Positions 23,467 to 50,893 of a stretch of DNA of 52,377 nucleotides are shown here, in pieces. A program made the position numbers and the translations under genes. A model generated the notes under the pieces. The model made no database searches. It saw only the letters and a list, made by a program, of their open reading frames with translations, and was not told the DNA's origin. Source of the DNA: a virus; IMG/VR virus record IMGVR_UViG_3300024239_000355, positions 1 through 52,377 of that record; one strand, written 5' to 3'. The stretch's first letter is position 1. Each line of letters begins with the position of its first letter.

Positions 23467-24191
23467 ATGACAGTAGTAATCTCTTGTGCAATTTGTGGGT
23501 CAGAACACAAATCGTTTGTGTCGTTGGTCAAACATCTTAAATTTCAGCAAAATTATCCGACTGCGCTGCTCAACAATGGGCAGACCGAGAAACAAACGGT
23601 GAAAAACAACGCATCATAGAGAAAACGACTGAAACAAATCGCCAGCTTATAGCCGCTATGACCGAGCAAGAACGCAAAGACCGATTTGGTTGGATGAACA
23701 AATTATCTACAGAAGAAAAACAAGAAAAAATAAAAATGCTTTTGGATAGAGGACTTGGTAAATGGAAACCAAAATCAGACGAAGAAAAACATCAAATATA
23801 CCAGAGAATTAGGAATAAAATGGTTACAAATGGTATTTGGTTGGACCGTGAACAACTGAATATGTCCGACTGGTATGATTATTCAAATATGGTGCGAAAA
23901 TTAACTGACGCCACATATAGAAAACACAAGCAACAGATTAACCCCAATAATTTACCTCGCCGACGAGGGTACTATCATGTGGATCATATTTTCAGTATAT
24001 ATGATGGGTTCATTCATGAAGTGCCAATAGAAGTAATGGCGGCTCCGGTTAATCTTCAAATGTTAACCGAAACCTCTAATAGTTCAAAAAATAACAAAAG
24101 TTGGTGTACGGTAAACGAGCTATATCAACGCTACAATGAATGGTCGGGCGTGGGAGGATCGAACTCCGTTCCTGTTCAGGAAGTAGCTTGA
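23467..24191 (+). pseudogene. HNH homing-endonuclease-like gene, apparently frameshifted near 23540
   Basis: N-terminal CAIC..H finger out of frame with the downstream YHVDHIFS...NLQML..NSSKNNK domain; AT-rich. Confidence 0.55.
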
Positions 24192-24226
24192 GAGGCTACC
24201 GACCGCACCAGCAGTCTTCACGCCCG
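24141..24226 (-). tRNA. tRNA with Glu anticodon CTC, 8/4 fold, long variable arm
   Basis: CGGGCGTG/CACGCCCG acceptor, loop CTCTCAA, T-stem GGAG/CTCC, encoded CCA. Confidence 0.8.
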
Positions 24227-24231
24227 ATAGA

Positions 24232-24315
24232 TGGTCCGAGGTGGGGGAATCGAACCCCGAGCCTTGCGGCGGCAGATTGAAGGTCTACTGATCATCCCAG
24301 TAATCTTCACCTCGG
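24232..24315 (-). tRNA. tRNA with Glu anticodon TTC, 8/4 fold, variable arm
   Basis: CCGAGGTG/CACCTCGG acceptor, loop CCTTCAA, T-stem GGGG/CCCC, CCA. Confidence 0.8.
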
Positions 24316-24320
24316 TAAAT

Positions 24321-24402
24321 TGGCAGCGCATGGGGGAATCGAACCCCAGGATGATCCACTCGGGTGAAAACCGAGCCGCCGTACCCAGCAGCATCATGCG
24401 CT
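24321..24402 (-). tRNA. tRNA with Glu anticodon TTC, 8/4 fold
   Basis: AGCGCATG/CATGCGCT acceptor, loop TTTTCAC, CCA. Confidence 0.8.
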
Positions 24403-24403
24403 A

Positions 24404-24478
24404 TGGTCCCCCGTATCGGATTCGAACCGATGTCCCTGGATCGAGAATCCAAGTGTCCTTCCCATAGACGAACGGGGG
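24404..24478 (-). tRNA. tRNA-Glu(CTC)
   Basis: 7/5 cloverleaf, loop TTCTCGA, TTCGAAT T-loop, CCA. Confidence 0.85.
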
Positions 24479-24489
24479 ATAACCGTAAA

Positions 24490-24617
24490 TAAGACCTAAG
24501 AAAAAACCTCCATGTTTACCTTTTTGGTCTTAACCTTCAATAAGAAGCCCAACCCGAGCTTCTTATTGAAGGTTATGTCCCTATCCTTTAACAAGCGACG
24601 CGCCAATTAAAGGATAG
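24490..24617. repeat. three consecutive inverted repeats in the tRNA spacer
   Basis: Includes a perfect 18-bp stem TAACCTTCAATAAGAAGC (24531-24575) and an 11-bp stem (24581-24617). Confidence 0.85.
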
Positions 24618-24698
24618 TGGTCCCCCGTGTGGGGGTCGCACCCACCTGAACCTCTCGTTGAAAGCGAGATGATCACACTAACCGCAATCCCACGGGGG
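24618..24698 (-). tRNA. tRNA-Glu(TTC), atypical D and T loops
   Basis: Loop CTTTCAA, T-loop TGCGACC, CCA. Confidence 0.8.
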
Positions 24699-24707
24699 AT
24701 ATTTTAT

Positions 24708-24782
24708 TGGTGACTCCGAGGAATTCTGCCATCCCATTGCCCGCTTGAAAGGCGAGTGTCCTTACTTTTAGACGACGGAGCC
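24708..24782 (-). tRNA. tRNA-Glu(TTC), atypical T arm
   Basis: GGCTCCG acceptor, TCGTCT..GGAC D arm, loop CTTTCAA, CCA. Confidence 0.8.
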
Positions 24783-24819: not shown

Positions 24820-24894
24820 AAAAAAGCCGCTTAGATCGATCTCTCTAAGCGGCTGCCGTTCACGCTGGACCTGATACCAGCATGTTGAGCAGCC
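24820..24894 (-). promoter_or_regulatory. attenuator: overlapping antiterminator and terminator
   Basis: GGCTGC..CATGCTGG/CCAGCGTG..GCAGCC hairpin overlaps the terminator AGCCGCTTAGA/TCTAAGCGGCT-TTTTT. Confidence 0.75.
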
Positions 24895-24927
24895 TTAACT
24901 TTCTTCTTCCACCACGAACACGAACAT
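24895..24927 (-). CDS. Glu leader peptide MFVFVVEEES
   Basis: AAGGA Shine-Dalgarno 8 nt upstream; GAA GAA GAA AGT TAA. Confidence 0.7.
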   Translation of the reverse strand: MFVFVVEEES

Positions 24928-25041
24928 CTTACTCATCCTTCTGCTGTGCTACCTTGTAGCACGATCATGCTATTTTCTAGTAAGGTCACCATGACCTTAC
25001 CAGTTTTAGGTAAGAGCTTACCAGAAAATGGTAAAGCTCCG

Positions 25042-25317
25042 ACCGGGTGTCCTAGACCGCTAGACGACCGCCAGGGAGTTGTTAACTTTACCCCGGCAGG
25101 CAAGGATTCGAACCTTGCGTTTCCCAGTTCTGGCGGGCTAATCAAGCCCGAAAAACTCCGGTGTCCTAAGCCTCTAGACGATCAACGGGCGATCAACTCC
25201 GCTGAGTGGGATTCGAACCCACGTTCCCCGGTTCTTGAGGGCACGTCTTGTGCATCGACCTTCCCGCTCGGTAACGATCCGCCTCGGTAGGGGAGTCGAA
25301 CCCCATCCCCGCACAAG
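25042..25317 (-). ncRNA. three circularly permuted tRNA-like modules (YrlA-like topology)
   Basis: T arm, then closed acceptor hairpin, then D arm at 25247-25317, 25156-25232 and 25042-25128. Confidence 0.65.
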
Positions 25318-25357
25318 CCACTCACCTTTCGTGGCGCCGAAGCGCCGTGCCCAACTC

Positions 25358-25921
25358 TTACACCAAGTCAGCCCGATGGCTCTCGATGTATTCTCTCACC
25401 ACCGAAGGAAGTGCCACGTCCCGAGTAGTTCCGTCCGGTTCCCCGCAGCATTCACAACAATGGTTCAACTCAGTGGTGATCCCGGTTTTGACAAATATTT
25501 CATCACCAACCTGAACCATCTTCTCATAATCGACAAGACTATTCACCGAAACCATAAACGGCACTGCCGTTTTTTTCCCACTCGGGGCAGTGATCAGCAC
25601 GTTCTTCTTGCCGACACGCCAGCCCCAAACTTCCTTACCAATGGTCAGGTTGCGCTCGCCTTTGGCTTTCTTCCGAACCAGTCGTTCGCGATTGGCGCAC
25701 ACATACTGGACCAGATGCTCCTTGGATAATTGCCAAGTAGCAAGCAGTCCGCATGCCTCGACAATATCCCATTCCTGCACAACCTGTTCTTTACCATCCA
25801 CTGGTGAGATGAAGATTACGTATTGTCTTCCCCAATTCACCCGCTTGCGGCGGTACTTCCACGTCTCCCCCTCCACGACGATTTCATAAATGGGGTTCAT
25901 CACTACTTTCTGTTTACCCAT
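25358..25921 (-). CDS. hypothetical protein inside the tRNA-Glu operon
   Basis: 187 aa with a CCECC motif, immediately downstream of a tRNA-Glu. Confidence 0.7.
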   Translation of the reverse strand: MGKQKVVMNPIYEIVVEGETWKYRRKRVNWGRQYVIFISPVDGKEQVVQEWDIVEACGLLATWQLSKEHLVQYVCANRERLVRKKAKGERNLTIGKEVWGWRVGKKNVLITAPSGKKTAVPFMVSVNSLVDYEKMVQVGDEIFVKTGITTELNHCCECCGEPDGTTRDVALPSVVREYIESHRADLV

Positions 25922-25948: not shown

Positions 25949-26025
25949 TGGTGTCCCCAACGGGTGACGATCCCGTTTTTTCGCCTTGAAAGGGCGATGT
26001 TCTAACCAACGTAAACTATGGGGAC
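25949..26025 (-). tRNA. tRNA-Glu(TTC)
   Basis: GTCCCCA/TGGGGAC acceptor, loop CTTTCAA, T-loop ATCGTCA, CCA. Confidence 0.85.
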
Positions 26026-26106
26026 AAAAACAAAACCGCCTCACATTCGCGGGCGGTTCCAACTCTGCCATCAGGGCAAAATTAAAGCCGCCCTTGATGA
26101 GGCGGC
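26026..26106 (-). terminator. tandem terminators between leader peptide and tRNA-Glu
   Basis: GCCGCC..GGCGGC-TTTAATTTT and AACCGCC..GGCGGTT-TTGTTTTT. Confidence 0.7.
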
Positions 26107-26131
26107 TCGGCAAGCAGACATGCTCAACGAA

Positions 26132-26185
26132 TCACCCCATCGGGTTGCGTTCTTCCTCGCGTTCGCGTTCGAGCATGACAATCAT
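26132..26185 (-). CDS. Glu leader peptide MIVMLEREREEERNPMG
   Basis: AGAGGA Shine-Dalgarno; 5 Glu codons in 7 positions; TATAAATA at 26253-26260. Confidence 0.7.
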   Translation of the reverse strand: MIVMLEREREEERNPMG

Positions 26186-26413
26186 GGTACTAAATCCTCT
26201 GGTTCTTGCCGCTTAACGGCGTGTCTCGTTTGTGCCGACGTATCGACAAACCTATTTATACAAACAACGCTTTTTGGCGTCAAATTCTTTTTATGGTGGG
26301 TCGGGCGTTCTGCCCGACCAAGCCGCGTTGTGGTGGTATTTATACAAGCTGGTTCGTGGATGTCAACTAGAAATTTCTTAGATAACGAAAAGGCGGGTTT
26401 CCCCGCCTTTTTG

Positions 26414-29373: not shown

Positions 29374-29652
29374 CTAGAGCTTAACCAGAACGATTTCGAC
29401 CAAAATGGTTTCGCGAAGCTCTTTGGTAAGGGCAACACGCTCTTCCTCGATGTGCGGGAACGCCTCGATCACTTCCGCCCATTCAGTGGTGTTGGCGGCA
29501 AACGCCAACTTGGCCGCTGATTTGGCGAACGTGATGAATTCGTCAGTCTTGGCAGCGAAGTCGGTTTGTGAAAGTACCGTTACCACGGCAGCACCCTTGT
29601 TCTGGGTAGTCGAATCTGAATGAATATATGTCTCAATGCGACCAGTGCGCAT
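29374..29652 (-). CDS. mini EF-Ts-like protein
   Basis: GRIETYIH...SQTDFAAKTDEF resembles the EF-Ts core ETDFVA motif; AGGAG Shine-Dalgarno. Confidence 0.7.
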   Translation of the reverse strand: MRTGRIETYIHSDSTTQNKGAAVVTVLSQTDFAAKTDEFITFAKSAAKLAFAANTTEWAEVIEAFPHIEEERVALTKELRETILVEIVLVKL

Positions 29653-29667
29653 GTTCTCTCTCCTATT

Positions 29668-29735
29668 TGGGGTACTGGGTAGTCACGAACCACCGTCTCG
29701 CTTGCGCGTGTCCTTCTCTGTTTGACGACAGCACC
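29668..29735 (-). ncRNA. anticodon-less tRNA-like RNA
   Basis: GGTGCTG/CAGTACC acceptor, TCGTC..GGAC D arm, CGC-GCAA-GCG in place of the anticodon arm, GGTGG-TTCGTGA-CTACC T arm, then CCA. Confidence 0.65.
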
Positions 29736-29737
29736 GG

Positions 29738-30571
29738 TTAAAATTTCATGTCCTCAATTGCCATGACCCATTTGGCGACATCGCAAGCATAGAAACCTGC
29801 GGAATTGATGCAGTTGATCTCGATGACCTTGGGTCCAAGATCGGTCAACGCGATGTCCAGGCAGAACGCCCGATCCGGCGACCACGTATCGACCATCTTC
29901 TGTGCATACGCCCAGATGTCCGGGTCGATGTTGGTGTCATGGATCACCCGATCCCCCAATTTGTACTGGGAGCCGGTGACGATCACACCATCCACCACAA
30001 AGAACCGGTACTCCCGATAGATATCCTTCAACGAAGATGCCATTACCATAGTGTCGGGAGTGACCGTAGCGAAACACGCCTGTTCACCCAAGACCACTAC
30101 GTTATGTTGCCAGTCGGCAAACTCTGTCTTGTCCATCACGCGACCGCTGAAGCTCTTGGTGTCCTCGCATGGGCGAATGAAGAACGCCTCCCAGGACGGC
30201 TTCATGTCGGTATACCGGCACACCACCGAGTCCGGGTTCAGCAGATTGTCACCGTAATGCTCCAACCAGCTTTCATACCGGAAATCAGCGTTCGAGAAAG
30301 CACCAGGGGTCCAACCCCGAGCCTTGGCCGCTTTGATCATCGTGGTCGCTCCACAGACCATGACGTGACCGCTCTCATCGATCACGGCATCAGGGGCAAG
30401 CATGATGTCCTTGTCTTTCCAGGCGAACGTATCGAAGTCGCCCGGAAGCAGCTTGCTCGTTGTCGGGACGACCTTGACAAAGGTGTGGGGGATGTCGAAC
30501 CGCTCCAACGTGTTGCAGAGCGCCGTATAGCCGTATTCCGAATACAAATCTTTTTGGACAACCCAGAACAT
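29738..30571 (-). CDS. ATP-grasp domain protein (R2K/DUF4343-like)
   Basis: FFIRPCEDTKSFSG, EYRFFVVDG and KVIEINCINSAGFY motifs. Confidence 0.8.
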   Translation of the reverse strand: MFWVVQKDLYSEYGYTALCNTLERFDIPHTFVKVVPTTSKLLPGDFDTFAWKDKDIMLAPDAVIDESGHVMVCGATTMIKAAKARGWTPGAFSNADFRYESWLEHYGDNLLNPDSVVCRYTDMKPSWEAFFIRPCEDTKSFSGRVMDKTEFADWQHNVVVLGEQACFATVTPDTMVMASSLKDIYREYRFFVVDGVIVTGSQYKLGDRVIHDTNIDPDIWAYAQKMVDTWSPDRAFCLDIALTDLGPKVIEINCINSAGFYACDVAKWVMAIEDMKF

Positions 30572-30683
30572 TATCTTATCCAGTCTAGCTGGATAAATAG
30601 ATGTGGTAATTGGGATGCGCCAACATCCCAAAACCCGCTCGGTGAACCGGGCTGTCCCACGTGTCTATTTATCGGTGAAAACT

Positions 30684-30782
30684 ATGAACTACCAGCATGT
30701 TTATGACGTTTTGATTCTGCGCGCCATCAACCGCCAGAAGCCCAGTGGGTATACAGAACGACATCATATTCTCCCTGAATAC
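30684..30782 (+). pseudogene. HNH endonuclease N-terminal remnant
   Basis: MNYQHVYDVLILRA...GYTERHHILP, after which similarity ends. Confidence 0.55.
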
Positions 30783-31030
30783 CGGCGCCCAACGACGGCA
30801 CGGGCTTGTTTGTGCATCAAGCCCGTCAAACGCCGGGTTAGCGCGCGTTCTTCTTCGGTAAGCATCCGTACCGGGGCTTCCGTTTGATTCTCGGCAGAAA
30901 GCTGTTGCAGCTTTTCTTCGATAGCCTTCATTTCCGCCTTGTCAGCGTCCGTAAAGTTCACGGTTTGTTCTCCCCGTGCTACCGCCCGCATTTCGGCTTC
31001 AAGATCACCCAGTGTACGTTTCATCATCAA
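30764..31030 (-). CDS. hypothetical coiled-coil protein
   Basis: GAGG Shine-Dalgarno. Confidence 0.55.
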   Translation of the reverse strand: MMMKRTLGDLEAEMRAVARGEQTVNFTDADKAEMKAIEEKLQQLSAENQTEAPVRMLTEEERALTRRLTGLMHKQARAVVGRRYSGRI

Positions 31031-31074
31031 ACCTCAGGAAGTGACCCGGAGATTAACGTCTCCGGGTCCATTTC

Positions 31075-31692
31075 TTACTCAGCGAACTCTTCCCACTTGT
31101 TCCCGAAAACCTGTTTCAATTTATCGAGATAGGCGCGGGTCTTGACCTTCGCCATCCAAAGCTGGTGTCCAGCACCACCCTTGGCAATCACACCTTCAGC
31201 GCCTTCAGGAACGAATTCGCCGTTTCGCACTCGCTCGATGAACTCTTTGTTGAAGTTGCCCTCGTAGACAACTTCCGCAGCGAATTCAAGATCACCGAAG
31301 TGATCAAGGAACTCTTTCGGTCCCAGGAACCCTTTTCGATGTAGCTGAACATCGAACACTCGGAGTTCCTTGGTTTCGCCCTCGACGTGAGTTCCGGCGA
31401 ACGAGGATGGTCCGAAAAACTCTGCGAACACCGTGGCTTGTTCGAGTTGTCGGAAGTCGTCCCGCAGTACCTTTTCAAGAGGCTCTGCATATTTGGACAT
31501 GAACAACGGGATTGCTTCACCCAGTTGATCATCCGACGCATCAATCAAACGAGTGCGACTTCCGAACTTGTGAAAGCCGCGCTTTTTGGTCCATTCGAAG
31601 CGCAGATTGGAACCATCATACTTGTGGAAAGCTACACATGGCTTTCCGAGCGGAGCGCGAGCCGCGCCCACGATACTTGGATACGATTTCAT
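31075..31692 (-). CDS. RNA-ligase-like nucleotidyltransferase
   Basis: HKYDGSN, FAEFFG, VFDV, EGVIAK and KVK motifs. Confidence 0.8.
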   Translation of the reverse strand: MKSYPSIVGAARAPLGKPCVAFHKYDGSNLRFEWTKKRGFHKFGSRTRLIDASDDQLGEAIPLFMSKYAEPLEKVLRDDFRQLEQATVFAEFFGPSSFAGTHVEGETKELRVFDVQLHRKGFLGPKEFLDHFGDLEFAAEVVYEGNFNKEFIERVRNGEFVPEGAEGVIAKGGAGHQLWMAKVKTRAYLDKLKQVFGNKWEEFAE

Positions 31693-31807: not shown

Positions 31808-31884
31808 TGGTGCGCCTGACGGAATTCGAATCCGTGATCTTCGCCGTGACAGGGCGACGGGGACAGCCTCTCCCCTACAAGCGC
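31808..31884 (-). tRNA. tRNA-Asp(GTC)
   Basis: Cloverleaf, loop CTGTCAC, CCA. Confidence 0.85.
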
Positions 31885-31889
31885 ATAAT

Positions 31890-31967
31890 TGGCGACCCAT
31901 GTCGGTTTCGAACCGACCTGATTATTCGGGAGACAACCGAATGACCACCCAAGCAGTCCCATGGGCC
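31890..31967 (-). tRNA. tRNA-Asp(GTC) with T37
   Basis: Cloverleaf, loop TTGTCTC, GCCA. Confidence 0.85.
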
Positions 31968-32126
31968 ATCTTGCCGATCTTTGACCGACAAATTTACTAA
32001 CAAATACAACAACCTACGTCCCGTCTGCGTCGTGATCTTACCGATCTTATTACCGATCACGACACAGGTACATTCCTCTTTATTATCAACAGCTTATCAG
32101 TATTTTCTCTGATTAACTGCCGATGT

Positions 32127-32234
32127 TGGCGGTTCCGGCAAGGATTCGAACCTGCGATCTCCACCTGACGCGGTGGCGGGGACGACCAAGTGTTTTGTTC
32201 GGCGCCGAACTCACACCAACTCCCCTACGGAACC
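32127..32234 (-). tRNA. aberrant tRNA-Asp(GTC) with a hairpin inserted in the D loop
   Basis: GGTTCCG/CGGAACC acceptor, 6-nt loop GCGTCA, about 30-nt D-loop insert, GCCA. Confidence 0.65.
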
Positions 32235-32260
32235 TAACCCATTGATATACAAGGGAAAAT

Positions 32261-32340
32261 TGGCGACTCGTAGGGAATTCGAATCCCTCTGAATATCCGG
32301 AGTGACAATCCGGCGACCACACCTAGCAGTCCCACGAGCC
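32261..32340 (-). tRNA. tRNA-Asp(GTC)
   Basis: Cloverleaf, loop TTGTCAC, GCCA. Confidence 0.85.
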
Positions 32341-32514
32341 ATATTTCCAAAAACAAACTCAACAACCACCGTTTCAATGACTACGCTTTTACTCTTCCTC
32401 GAAACCATCGTCAACAAAAATTTTCAATTAAACCAAATATTTCTTCGAAGCTCTTCAACTTATACTTTAACAATACTTCTCCGTTACTGACTTCAAGTCA
32501 GACACGCAGGCAAT

Positions 32515-32590
32515 AAAAAAAGGTCGCTTCCATTTGGAGCGACCTTTATCCCAGAAACCGGGCAATAAAAAAGTCGCTCGGTGGCGACCT
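32515..32590 (-). terminator. tandem duplicated terminators upstream of the tRNA-Asp array
   Basis: AGGTCGC..GCGAC(C/T)-T-tract-ATTGCC twice. Confidence 0.8.
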
Positions 32591-32615
32591 TCTTACGACT
32601 ACGTGCGCAAGTTGA

Positions 32616-32675
32616 TCACCACGAGGTGGTATCCTCGTTGGTATCTCGGTCAGCGGTGTAAGCGCGCATGGTCAT
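32616..32675 (-). CDS. leader peptide MTMRAYTADRDTNEDTTSW
   Basis: AAGGA Shine-Dalgarno; 3 Asp and 5 Thr codons; TATAAATA at 32743-32750. Confidence 0.6.
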   Translation of the reverse strand: MTMRAYTADRDTNEDTTSW

Positions 32676-32770
32676 AACTTCATTCCTTCATTGTTGGGCG
32701 AGCCTGGGTAACAAACGGGTCCAGCAGCCATCGCCACAATCCTATTTATACAGAGAGCGCAAAAACGGTG

Positions 32771-33070
32771 TCAAATAGAATTTTTCAGTTGCGATTCGTG
32801 CATTGCCGACTGCTCACACCAAAACCGTTCGTTAGAACCTACCGTTCGGATAAATGGGTGAAATGCAACCATGGCATCAAACGGATATGTGGGAAGCAAC
32901 TTATGCCGTTCGTTTTCATTAACCAGAACGATCCAATTATCCATTACGCCATATGACGCAACCCCGACAATACATCCCCGAACGATGTTGTTTGGATCAC
33001 CTCCCATTGCAACTTCAACTGCTTCTCCATTCTCGAAGACGGGTTTGCCGCTTTCAATTTTCATGATCAC
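32771..33070 (-). CDS. hypothetical protein
   Basis: AAGGA Shine-Dalgarno. Confidence 0.6.
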   Translation of the reverse strand: MIMKIESGKPVFENGEAVEVAMGGDPNNIVRGCIVGVASYGVMDNWIVLVNENERHKLLPTYPFDAMVAFHPFIRTVGSNERFWCEQSAMHESQLKNSI

Positions 33071-47385: not shown

Positions 47386-47706
47386 TTACGCAGCGTTCAC
47401 CACGATAATCTGCATGTTTGCTTTACGGATGGTATCAATTTCGTCCCAGATCGGGCGTAGTTGATCCCAAATACCCGTGATCGCCGCCAGTTTCTTGTGA
47501 ACCACCGCCAATTTCTCCCGGTGGGTCGTGCTGAAGCGGGCGAGCGCATCCGCGTCACCCGAGGCGGACGCCGCCAATACATCCTGTTCCGCCAGTCGGA
47601 CGGCTGCGATATGCGGCGACAATTCGGCAATCATCTGCCGCCGTTGATCGTTCAGCTTGGTGGCGTCCTTGTAAAGCCGACGGTAACGTGCGTCTTCGGT
47701 ATCCAT
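47386..47706 (-). CDS. hypothetical helical protein
   Basis: Translationally coupled to tyrS. Confidence 0.6.
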   Translation of the reverse strand: MDTEDARYRRLYKDATKLNDQRRQMIAELSPHIAAVRLAEQDVLAASASGDADALARFSTTHREKLAVVHKKLAAITGIWDQLRPIWDEIDTIRKANMQIIVVNAA

Positions 47707-48992
47707 TATTTCACCTGTTTCAAACGGACGTGGTTCTTGCGACCTTTGGACAGCTTGGCTTCGCCATCCTCGTTAAAGTCGGCGGGCTGAAGATGGCGTT
47801 CGATCAGCACGACTTCATCATTGAGGCGAACCGAACCCTGTCCAATCTGGCGGCGCGCATCCGATTTGGACGTGGCAAGCTTGCCCTGCACCAGCAGATC
47901 AACGATGGACGGTTTCGGGTTCAGTTCCGAAACTTCCACGGTGGGCATGTCGGCACTCATACCGCCATTGGCGAAGACCGCCTGGGCGGCATCCCACGCT
48001 TCCTTGGCAGCAGTATCGCCACGCACGATCCCGGTCACCGAATTCGCCAAGGTGACCTTGTGATCGTTGATCTGGGACCGATCACCAGTGACGAATGCGG
48101 TGCGCCACCCATCGATCACCACCGGATCAATGTCCGAGAACCGGTCGAGGAACTTGAACACGTCAAGATCATCGACGTTCCGCCAGAACTGCCAGAACTC
48201 GAAGTGGGACAGCTTGTCCGCATTGAGCCAGACCGCGCCGTTGACGGTCTTGCCCATTTTCTCGCCCTTGCTGTTGGTCATCAAGGGATGGGTGATACCG
48301 AAGACTTCGGCACCGGGCACCGACTTGCGCACCAGTTCCGTACCCATGGTGATGTTGCCCCACTGATCGGACCCACCGATTTGGATGTTCACCCCATGCA
48401 GCTTGTGAAGCTGAAGGAAATCGTTTGCCTGGAAGAGGCTGTAGGTGAATTCGAGGAAGGAAATGCCTTCCTCGCTCTGCTGGCGGCGCTTCACGCTTTC
48501 CAGGGCGAGCATGGTGTTGATCGGAATTTTCCGCCCAACGTCCCGCAGGAAATTGACAAGGTTCAGCCCGAGCGTCCAATCGCTGTTGTAGACGACCCAC
48601 GCCGAATCATCTTCGGCACCGGGGTGCAAGCCGAGGACGGACGCAACCGATTTGGTCACGCCACGGCAGTTGCGAATGATGGTTTCGTCGTCCAACAGCG
48701 GGCGCGCACTGTCCTTGCCGCTGGGATCACCGATCCGGGTGGTTGCGGTACCAATCAGCGGGATGACTTTGTGACCGTGCTTGCGGAAGATGCGCAGCAT
48801 CATCAGGGTGGTCAGGTTGCCGACATGCAGGGACTCGGCAGTGCAATCAAACCCAGCATAGACCACCATTGTCTCACCTTTGGTGAGACGTTCGTCCAGA
48901 CCGACGAGATTGGTGCATTGGTTCATGAAACCACGCTGGACCAATTCTTCGATCAGCGGAGACTTCCACTCGGGAATATGCTGGGTAGTCAT
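47706..48992 (-). CDS. tyrS: tyrosine--tRNA ligase
   Basis: YAGFDCT..SLHVGN, QIGGSDQWGNI, KMGKT, S4-like C-terminus. Confidence 0.95.
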   Translation of the reverse strand: MTTQHIPEWKSPLIEELVQRGFMNQCTNLVGLDERLTKGETMVVYAGFDCTAESLHVGNLTTLMMLRIFRKHGHKVIPLIGTATTRIGDPSGKDSARPLLDDETIIRNCRGVTKSVASVLGLHPGAEDDSAWVVYNSDWTLGLNLVNFLRDVGRKIPINTMLALESVKRRQQSEEGISFLEFTYSLFQANDFLQLHKLHGVNIQIGGSDQWGNITMGTELVRKSVPGAEVFGITHPLMTNSKGEKMGKTVNGAVWLNADKLSHFEFWQFWRNVDDLDVFKFLDRFSDIDPVVIDGWRTAFVTGDRSQINDHKVTLANSVTGIVRGDTAAKEAWDAAQAVFANGGMSADMPTVEVSELNPKPSIVDLLVQGKLATSKSDARRQIGQGSVRLNDEVVLIERHLQPADFNEDGEAKLSKGRKNHVRLKQVK

Positions 48993-49110
48993 CTGACCAA
49001 ATCCTAGTTAAAAATGGTCCGCAAGGATATCAGAGATTACCCCAGCCCGTCAATCAGTCGTGTAGTTATGTCGTATGGGACATATTGGCGGCTTATGTTC
49101 TTTGCGACAT

Positions 49111-49138
49111 AAAAAAGCCGCCCGAAGGCGGCTTTTTT
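49111..49138. terminator. intrinsic terminator
   Basis: AAAAAAGCCGCC-CGAA-GGCGGCTTTTTT. Confidence 0.85.
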
Positions 49139-49526
49139 ACTGCTGGTACCCGATGATGGGTACATCAGCGGCTCTCATTTTGTCCCACAACACCATCGCG
49201 GCATGCTTCGGGATGAAGGAGAACCCTTCGATGATTACGGCGTCGTAGATCGAGAAATCATGCTTAACCGCTTTCATTGCCGAAACCGCCGTGACGCCCG
49301 GAAATTCACCACGACCCAGCGCGGGATGACCTACCCACAGGATGCACCAGCACCCCTCGTTATTGAAGGTGCGAATCAACCGACGCTGCAAACCACACCC
49401 GATCCACGGATACGGCAGACGCTTGAACAGATTGACCACCGCTTCCGGTAAATGGGTATTCACCAGAAGCGGAGGTATCTGCATCGGCATGGGATTGAAA
49501 CGTTCAGGGATCATTTCAAACGCCAT
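49137..49526 (-). CDS. hypothetical protein
   Basis: Overlaps the cysS end. Confidence 0.55.
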   Translation of the reverse strand: MAFEMIPERFNPMPMQIPPLLVNTHLPEAVVNLFKRLPYPWIGCGLQRRLIRTFNNEGCWCILWVGHPALGRGEFPGVTAVSAMKAVKHDFSIYDAVIIEGFSFIPKHAAMVLWDKMRAADVPIIGYQQ

Positions 49527-50893
49527 ACCGTCCGAGTCGGTTTGTCCTCAAGGAGGATACCGTCATTCGCCAATTCTTCACGAACGGCGTCGGCATCCGC
49601 CCACTGTTTGTTGGCGCGGAACTCGTTGCGCTGGGCAATCCGCGCTTCGATGTGTGCCATACGCTCCGGATCAACGCCCCAATGGAACCATTCGTCCGGG
49701 GTCATCTGAAGGATGCCCAGCAGTTTGCCAGCACCCAGCAGGTTCAGCTTGAGACGGGCACGCTCTTTGCCGTTCTTGGCATTCAGCGCATTGTCCGCCA
49801 TCCGATGGACCCACTGGATCGCATCGGGCGTGTTCAGATCATCGAGCAGCGGTTCGAGAACGTGAGCCGGGTATTCCGGTACGTCGCCACGATACTCGTA
49901 GTCCCAGCATTCGCCCAGCGCACGATAGAACTTGTCCATCACGGCTTTCGCATCTTCCAGACGGCTCCACGACCAGTCCAGCGGCTTGCGATAGTGCGTA
50001 TTGAGGATCAACAACCGCGCAACTTCACCCGGAACCCGTTCGAGGATTTCGGTAACCGTCACGAAGTTCCCGGCGCTCTTCGCCATCTTGCGACCGTCCG
50101 CGAGGATCATGCCGCAATGCAGCCAGTAGTTCGCCAGTTCGACCCCATGGGCGCACTCGCTCTGCGACCGCTCGTTCTCATGGTGCGGAAAGATCAAGTC
50201 CTGCCCACCACCGTGAATATCGATAGTCTTCCCGAGGTGCTTTGCAATCATGGCAGAACATTCGATGTGCCAGCCCGGACGCCCGTAGCCCCACGGCGAA
50301 TCCCAACCGGGAATGTCACCTTCACTCGGCTTCCACAGCACGAAATCTGCCGGGTTTTTCTTGTAGGGTGCCGGTTCGATCCGGGCACCAACAAGCCGTT
50401 CCGACTGATCCTGACCGCTAAGCAGTCCGTGGCAGGAAGCCGCTTCGATCTCGAAGAGAACATGCCCGGCAGACGCATAGGCATGCCCCTTGGCAATTAG
50501 CGTCTCGATCATCGCGATCATTTCGCCAATATGCTCAGTGGCACGCGGTTCGATGGTCGGCGCGCGAACATTGAGCGCCCGTTCAACCCGGTGGTAATTT
50601 TCCACCGTCTGATCGGTCAGGTCGCGAATGGAAATGCCACGTTCCGTCGCACGCACGATGATCTTGTCGTCCACATCGGTGATGTTGCGCGCGTAGACAA
50701 CATGATCATCGCCGTAGACCGCGCCCAAGACGCGGCTAAGAACGTCGAAGACCACTGCCGGGCGAGCATTTCCCAGATGCGGCGTGTCGTAGACCGTAGG
50801 TCCGCAGACGTACATCGTCACCCGATCTTTGTTCATCGGAGTGAAGGGTGTTTTGTCACGACCGAGCGTGTTGAAGAGGCGAATCTGTGTCAT
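49511..50893 (-). CDS. cysS: cysteine--tRNA ligase
   Basis: YVCGPTVY..HLGNAR, GRPGWHIECSAM, HGGGQDLIFPHHENE and KMAKS motifs. Confidence 0.96.
   Translation of the reverse strand: MTQIRLFNTLGRDKTPFTPMNKDRVTMYVCGPTVYDTPHLGNARPAVVFDVLSRVLGAVYGDDHVVYARNITDVDDKIIVRATERGISIRDLTDQTVENYHRVERALNVRAPTIEPRATEHIGEMIAMIETLIAKGHAYASAGHVLFEIEAASCHGLLSGQDQSERLVGARIEPAPYKKNPADFVLWKPSEGDIPGWDSPWGYGRPGWHIECSAMIAKHLGKTIDIHGGGQDLIFPHHENERSQSECAHGVELANYWLHCGMILADGRKMAKSAGNFVTVTEILERVPGEVARLLILNTHYRKPLDWSWSRLEDAKAVMDKFYRALGECWDYEYRGDVPEYPAHVLEPLLDDLNTPDAIQWVHRMADNALNAKNGKERARLKLNLLGAGKLLGILQMTPDEWFHWGVDPERMAHIEARIAQRNEFRANKQWADADAVREELANDGILLEDKPTRTVWRLK

Follow-up and report, generated by a model that had tools for sequence, protein, structure and literature searches.

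A candidate ribosome-read transcription attenuator ahead of six tRNA-Glu genes in a partial jumbo phage genome

The leader A element and the tRNA-Glu genes behind it

The virus record IMGVR_UViG_3300024239_000355 (195,192 bases, estimated to be 63% complete) is a partial jumbo phage genome, and its first 52 kb make up the window, that is, the whole stretch of 52,377 nucleotides analysed here. A first-pass annotation of this DNA had described a Shine-Dalgarno (SD) motif, a leader peptide, a competing helix, a terminator and tRNA genes, and all of these are present on the minus strand. The element measures 130 nt and begins with an SD-like AAGGA (24936..24940), placed 8 nt ahead of the ATG of a short ORF, hereafter named leader A, which encodes MFVFVVEEES and includes three tandem GAA codons (24895..24927, minus strand; ATG at 24927, TAA ending at 24895). 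Five of its nine non-initiator codons specify Phe or Val. The ORF is followed by a predicted antiterminator (24851..24894, minus strand), in which a 7-bp outer helix, GGCTGCU/GGCAGCC, encloses an 8-bp inner hairpin (24884-24877 with 24868-24861). The 5′ arm, GGCTGC(T) (24894-24888), lies directly 3′ of the leader A stop codon, and the 3′ arm, (G)GCAGCC (24857-24851), overlaps the 5′ arm of a predicted intrinsic terminator of 11 bp (24854-24825, with a U tract to 24820), the first 4 nt of which are common to both structures. No promoter was found by scanning directly upstream of leader A, such sites being present for the two further leaders described below, and leader A matched no leader family in Rfam.

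The first-pass annotation had also counted six tRNA-Glu genes, and six tRNA-like genes with Glu anticodons (four UUC and two CUC) do follow the terminator, at 24782-24141 on the minus strand. Four of the six were called by ARAGORN with default settings, and relaxed ARAGORN and Rfam added one each. tRNA 1 (UUC, 24708..24782) has a 7/5 fold with an atypical T loop and was recognised by an Rfam tRNA match of 34.7 bits and its cloverleaf fold; tRNA 2 (UUC, 24618..24698), with an enlarged D arm and an atypical T loop, was called by ARAGORN and gave no Rfam match; tRNA 3 (CUC, 24404..24478) was found by both programs. The remaining three have an 8/4 fold: tRNA 4 (UUC, 24321..24402; ARAGORN and Rfam), tRNA 5 (UUC, 24232..24315; relaxed ARAGORN and Rfam), which has a long variable arm and C33, and tRNA 6 (CUC, 24141..24226; ARAGORN), which has a tRNA-Sec-like body and scored 49.4 bits with the Rfam tRNA-Sec model. 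The 8-bp acceptor stem, 4-bp T stem and extended variable arm of tRNAs 4-6 are also those of the 8/4 allo-tRNAs, which, according to the available parts of the reports, are charged mainly with Ser or Ala (PMC5389517, PMC7609411); the tRNAs described here differ in their Glu anticodons, although PMC5389517 may list such anticodons too.

A search for 8/4 tRNA-Glu genes led to six viral and 47 metagenomic loci. Together with the window (24141-24402), loci L003-L008, many of L145-L190, and L243, L244 and L252 contain an 8/4 Glu-anticodon tRNA family with a common D arm, comprising 28 distinct sequences (retrieved with a pattern that included the anticodon), of which 26 keep all eight acceptor pairs despite varied sequence. 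An anticodon-free search with the D arm gave four tRNA matches and one genome match, all UUC. Two other structured stretches were noted on the minus strand of the same region. Long hairpins, possibly processing sites, lie between tRNA 2 and tRNA 3 (24480-24612) and are kept, in a shifted position, in a second strain. Upstream of leader A, 25035-25135 can adopt a circularly permuted tRNA-like fold consisting of a T arm, a loop-closed acceptor-like stem and a Glu-type D arm, with further loose copies of T and D arms at 25140-25320. This arrangement resembles the fold of the YrlA Y RNAs; that identity was rejected, there being no match to Rfam RF02553 and no Ro60 gene in the 63%-complete record.

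Folding of leader A with and without a ribosome

The first-pass annotation held that a ribosome reaching the stop codon masks GGCTGC so that the terminator forms, and that a stall at the GAA run leaves it free, and it named RNAfold with constraints as a check. In our folding model the ribosome footprint was masked codon by codon and the extent to which the four base pairs at the foot of the terminator were formed was read out. The main runs used a footprint of 29 nt with five upstream lengths and two temperatures, i.e. 10 settings, and all values refer to equilibrium. With the ribosome at the second and third GAA codons, terminator pairing was 0.03-0.47 in all 10 settings; at the first GAA it was 0.05-0.47 in eight of them, and 0.61 and 0.82 in the other two. 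With the ribosome at the Ser codon it rose to 0.87-0.97, and at the stop codon to 0.97-0.98, so that with this footprint the boundary of the switch falls directly after the third GAA. When all RNA 5′ of the ribosome was masked, pairing did not exceed 0.04 as far as the second Val codon, took values of 0.45-0.48 over the Glu codons and reached 0.97 with the ribosome at the stop; under longer masks the third Glu codon already closed the terminator (0.87-0.97). The proposed outcomes, i.e. a terminator with the stop masked and an open structure upon a GAA stall, were therefore reproduced in silico.

The antiterminator is predicted at −25.6 kcal/mol, against a mean of −12.7 for shuffled sequences (none of 500 shuffles was as stable), and only one of 300 shuffles of the spacer gave an equally large ribosome-dependent switch. 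The free leader A RNA folds as the antiterminator, with terminator pairing of 0.00-0.07, and a ribosome at the upstream Phe and Val codons (codons 1-6) also opens the terminator in most settings. A protector helix formed from the Phe-Val codons was considered and rejected, as the corresponding folds reached −32.0 and −34.1 compared with −44.7 kcal/mol, a cost of approximately 10 kcal/mol. The 'classical geometry' assigned to the element by the first-pass annotation thus stands with respect to the leader codons, the terminator, the mutually exclusive helices and the outcomes of stall and stop, but not with respect to an effective protector hairpin. In the folding model, leader A is a two-state design without a protector, and the mechanism put forward earlier holds. 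The lack of a protector hairpin implies that untranslated leader A would read through and that any earlier stall should open the terminator; since Phe and Val stalls have this effect too, specificity for Glu would come from the codon content rather than from the structure. Transcription completes the antiterminator ahead of the 3′ arm of the terminator, an order of events that would probably shift the balance further towards read-through.

Leaders B and C precede another tRNA-Glu gene and a tRNA-Asp cluster

Two further leaders are encoded on the minus strand of the window. Leader B (MIVMLEREREEERNPMG), which is Glu-rich, is followed by two hairpins (26030..26185) and precedes a seventh tRNA-Glu gene (UUC, 25949..26025; ARAGORN). 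Leader C (MTMRAYTADRDTNEDTTSW; 32675-32616), which is Asp-rich, belongs to a region with a promoter-like site and two terminator hairpins (32512..32774), ahead of a cluster of tRNA-Asp(GUC) genes (31808..32340), three of which were called by ARAGORN. Within this cluster, 32127-32234 (minus strand) is tRNA-like with an enlarged D arm and is called by ARAGORN as an intron-bearing tRNA-Pro. Among the 121 short ORFs of the record with a strong SD, two are Glu-rich and one is Asp-rich by thresholds that were chosen after the leaders were known; these three are leaders A, B and C, and each lies before tRNA genes for the same amino acid. Similarly, three consecutive Glu codons occur in only two of the 271 short SD-led ORFs that a looser rule yields for the 195-kb record, leaders A and B, both of which precede tRNA-Glu genes. 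The presence of three cognate leader-tRNA pairs in one genome is the strongest support for the attenuator reading.

The first hairpin of leader B was paired at 0.72 in the free RNA, at approximately 0 over most of the Glu stretch and at 1.00 with the ribosome at the stop, and the second hairpin was disarmed at equilibrium once the first had been passed (0.00-0.37). For leader C, terminator pairing was 1.00 in the free RNA, at codons 1-7 and from codon 17 onwards, and 0.02-0.41 at codons 10-15, which correspond to the Asp/Glu stretch. Untranslated leader B would consequently terminate only in part, whereas leader C would do so fully, and in the model leader C behaves as a textbook attenuator. 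Leader B scored 31.7 bits with the Rfam family RcsR1, below the cut-off of 60.

Four copies of the motif TTGAC-N16-19-TATAAATA are present in the record: two lie ahead of leader B, one ahead of leader C and one ahead of the tmRNA gene. The two promoter-like sites upstream of leader B (26253..26366, minus strand) would be the nearest candidates for a transcript reaching leader A, and since no minus-strand terminator was found by scanning between leaders B and A, leader A is probably located inside the transcript that starts ahead of leader B.

Strain variation

The region was found in four DNA sequencing runs of one study, of which X1 may be the source of the record, and in no RNA run among those listed. 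A second strain (X4 contig) shows only two substitutions in 24847-25100, one changing the leader A stop codon from TAA to TAG and the other an upstream in-frame ATG (24936) to ACG. Both preserve the stop and the SD-ATG arrangement and leave the modelled switch unchanged, and the loss of the upstream ATG supports a start of leader A at 24927. At two in 254 nt, such changes are no rarer than in the strain background, with 90 in about 4,080 nt. The surroundings are more divergent: the allele of the adjacent protein is 43% identical (P0124), and behind the terminator arm a block of 368 nt is replaced by one of 708 nt, which includes at least one further tRNA, with a different tRNA order. The anticodon of tRNA 3 is UUC instead of CUC in this strain, and the anticodon stem of tRNA 4 shows a compensatory change from G-C to C-G. 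In the X3 contig, a change and indels, possibly including a compensatory pair, affect the upper terminator stem; these are strain-level variants only. With so few changes, all within the background divergence, strain variation lends weak support to the attenuator reading.

Leaders before tRNA genes in other genomes

None of the search routes led to a diverged homolog of leader A, so that variants of the antiterminator are limited to the strain level. The exact leader A motif had no match elsewhere, and a DNA search against annotated phages gave three single-tRNA matches and no homolog. The family of the adjacent 194-aa protein led to none in two collections, and neither did the neighbouring PRTase as a single query; searched as an alignment, the latter identified 13 loci, two with tRNAs and none with a leader. 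A pattern combining a Glu run with tRNA-Glu retrieved 96 loci, at none of which a short Glu leader was accompanied by a terminator, and the antiterminator/terminator pattern retrieved 35 loci, one of which (L223) is directly before tRNAs and none of which holds a homolog.

Other leaders did come to light at tRNA loci. L157 and L160 have a sigma-70-like promoter, a YYYEREE leader and a terminator before Tyr/Glu(/Arg) tRNAs, the two leaders being homologous to each other; in the folding model they showed no switch, with terminator pairing of 0.84 or more throughout. The record G001 (L156/L003/L136) encodes a leader of 36 codons in which Tyr, Ser, Cys, Glu and Gly are frequent, ahead of tRNAs for Ser, Tyr, Glu, Gly and Cys. 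In L223 (1450-1583), Tyr and Leu tRNAs are directly preceded by a Leu/Tyr-rich leader, which lacks an obvious SD, and by a terminator, the helix ends resembling those of leader A. The leaders of L156 and L223 displayed a partial switch only.

A whole-peptide test of codon match on 64 cluster leaders was null (two rows with p<0.01; 665 of 2000 permutations as good). A run-based test on 12 rows of leader, terminator and tRNA, taken from 94 tRNA-bearing loci, found that codon runs match the downstream tRNAs, with none of 5000 permutations as good, also for the nine rows outside the window; this score was designed after the whole-peptide null result and after the data had been seen, the loci were chosen via Glu tRNAs, and two rows are homologs. 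Applied to 18 tRNA regions from five large phage records, a strict detector yielded no leader with a clear match; the G001 leader, the terminator tail of which did not pass the filter, escaped it, and a Ser-rich row was scored in the run-based test only. A Ser-rich leader (MSSISS...) with a hairpin is encoded on the minus strand of L135 near 12536, about 310 nt before two tRNA-Ser genes. Most of the large tRNA arrays examined had no such leader. L159 (the 1.46-Mb contig Ga0308158_10000004) carries at least 23 tRNA genes arrayed in repeated units, all for Glu, Asp or Arg, with no leader in the stretch examined. In L163, L169, L185, L187, L188 and L189, a conserved structured non-coding stretch and a terminator are located ahead of arrays that start with tRNA-Trp.

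Comparison with known systems

In attenuators of the trpL type, a short leader contains tandem cognate codons, antiterminator and terminator helices are alternatives, and the position of the ribosome decides between them (PMC4615214, PMC7968998). As described in the accessible parts of these reports, a leader left untranslated results in termination at the trp attenuator (PMC4615214), and ribosome-mediated attenuation operates in alphaproteobacteria, the case being trpL/rnTrpL of S. meliloti, Rfam RcsR1 (PMC7968998). Leader A has in common with the trpL leaders of E. coli and S. meliloti the tandem cognate codons, the alternative helices and an outcome set by ribosome position. It differs in that its targets are phage tRNA genes, not enzymes or synthetases, in that it would sense Glu, and in that, without a 1:2 protector, its untranslated RNA is predicted to allow read-through where that of trp leads to termination. 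Going by the folding model, leader A likely works like trpL, but it stands apart from that class in its missing protector and its target genes. Further leader-peptide attenuators are the his, phe, leu, thr and pheST leaders.

T-box riboswitches make termination depend on the charging state of a tRNA (PMC4052509, in the part available); they bind the tRNA directly, whereas the sensor of leader A would be a reading frame, and a T-box identity was rejected as there was no Rfam T-box match. The uORF of E. coli topAI-yjhQ is a short ORF that reports ribosome stalling, according to the available part of PMC12121999; in leader A, by comparison, the codons match the regulated tRNAs and the output is an intrinsic terminator. 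No report of a leader-peptide attenuator controlling tRNA genes was found in a literature search that lay mostly outside subscription journals, and what is new here is likely the application of a known principle, ribosome-mediated attenuation, to tRNA genes. If true, attenuation would extend from enzymes and synthetases to tRNA genes and create a loop that closes itself, the molecule sensed being the product.

Proposed mechanism and alternative explanations

We consider it probable, on the modelled folds, that leader A is a ribosome-read transcription attenuator that admits RNA polymerase to the six tRNA-Glu genes when GAA is decoded slowly. Host RNA polymerase would transcribe leader A with a ribosome following behind. 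With ample charged tRNA-Glu, the ribosome would reach the stop and cover GGCUGCU, the full terminator would form and transcription would end near 24820. If the ribosome were instead detained no later than the third GAA, GGCUGCU would stay free to pair with the foot of the terminator, and read-through would follow; the same would be the default whenever leader A is not fully translated. The six tRNA-Glu, once made, would presumably relieve the stall and close the switch, i.e. a negative feedback.

Three other explanations have to be weighed. The element could be a ribosome-coupled switch that reports any failure of translation, such as an initiation block, antibiotics or stalls at Phe or Val codons, with no real preference for Glu. 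This would fit the absence of a protector and a terminator that is open, in most settings, in the free RNA and with ribosomes at codons 1-6, as well as the different 708-nt block with at least one further tRNA that the second strain has behind the same leader A; we nevertheless regard it as rather unlikely, given that EEE is found in two of 271 short ORFs, both before tRNA-Glu, that the boundary of the switch lies directly after the Glu run, and that the Asp cluster has an Asp leader. It is very unlikely, in our view, that the terminator is an ordinary or leaky one, with the short ORF and the competing helix present by chance and the tRNAs made through read-through or from an unseen promoter: short ORFs are indeed found ahead of 31 of the 359 terminator-like rows in the record, and sequence conservation is seen at the strain level only, but chance would have to account for three cognate leader-tRNA matches in one genome, for the outcome of the shuffle tests (1/300 and 0/500) and for a promoter motif whose four copies precede leader B (twice), leader C and the tmRNA. 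Finally, the ribosome might be uninvolved and the helices might serve the processing or stability of a long precursor RNA, or be recognised by a phage antitermination factor. The abundance of other hairpins (24941-25360 folds at z −4.2, and long hairpins separate tRNAs) would fit this, yet we hold it to be scarcely probable at all, since it leaves the SD-led run of Glu codons, the distance between this run and the helix and the matching Asp leader unexplained.

If leader A is an attenuator that responds to slow GAA decoding, additional tRNA would be useful only if the tRNA itself were limiting, and the likely trigger is therefore a loss of host tRNA-Glu rather than a shortage of glutamate. On-demand expression of this kind would point to the replacement of depleted host tRNAs and not to steady codon compensation, and would bear on why phages carry tRNAs. 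One possible cause of such a loss is a tRNA-cutting defence, although no tRNA-Glu-specific defence of this host was identified. Phage tRNAs offset the tRNA-cutting defences PARIS, retron Eco7 and Septu (PMC11464382, PMC12673091, PMC13096335, PMC10264068), and, as far as the available parts of these reports go, they are, as the tRNAs behind leader A would be, phage-encoded replacements with altered sequences; unlike leader A, the tRNAs described in those parts are not linked to a demand-driven transcription switch. HipA inactivates GluRS, according to the accessible text of PMC8262856 and PMC7029023. Tentatively, leader A might act as a counter-defence alarm, in which stalling at GAA detects the destruction of host tRNA-Glu and releases a set of six Glu-anticodon tRNAs of differing build, of which some would escape the nuclease; those of the 8/4 type may be charged by another synthetase and keep ribosomes moving if GluRS is inactivated, and the parallel Asp switch would cover the remaining half of the GAN box. 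This is a possibility that we rate as doubtful. The leader codons would in that case name the tRNAs under pressure, Glu and Asp, and would allow the target of such a host defence, if there is one, to be predicted.

The phage and its probable host

The window encodes GroEL/ES, topoisomerase II, TyrRS, CysRS, an Acb1-like protein, an ADP-ribosylglycohydrolase and an RNA ligase. A gene scan of the rest of the record, which took in 107 ORFs and left out seven that span region borders, added class I LysRS, ArgRS, EF-Tu, DnaK, GcrA and a T4-type terminase. The record also carries a two-piece tmRNA, which together with GcrA and class I LysRS makes an alphaproteobacterial host likely, judged by the usual distributions of these three features. 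Neither GluRS nor an AspRS-type class II synthetase was found in the 195,192 bases of the 63%-complete record, in which the convincing tRNA genes are for Glu and Asp only; the remaining third may hold others. Genes for TyrRS, CysRS, LysRS, ArgRS, a MetRS-like synthetase and EF-Tu are present (window 47706-50893; record 57856-66720, 80886-82124 and 182795-184102), with no leader found ahead of any of the synthetase genes and no matching tRNAs in the 63%-complete record. Directly downstream of the tRNA-Asp cluster, the minus strand (29374-31692) encodes the RNA ligase, an ATP-grasp protein and a short EF-Ts-like protein.
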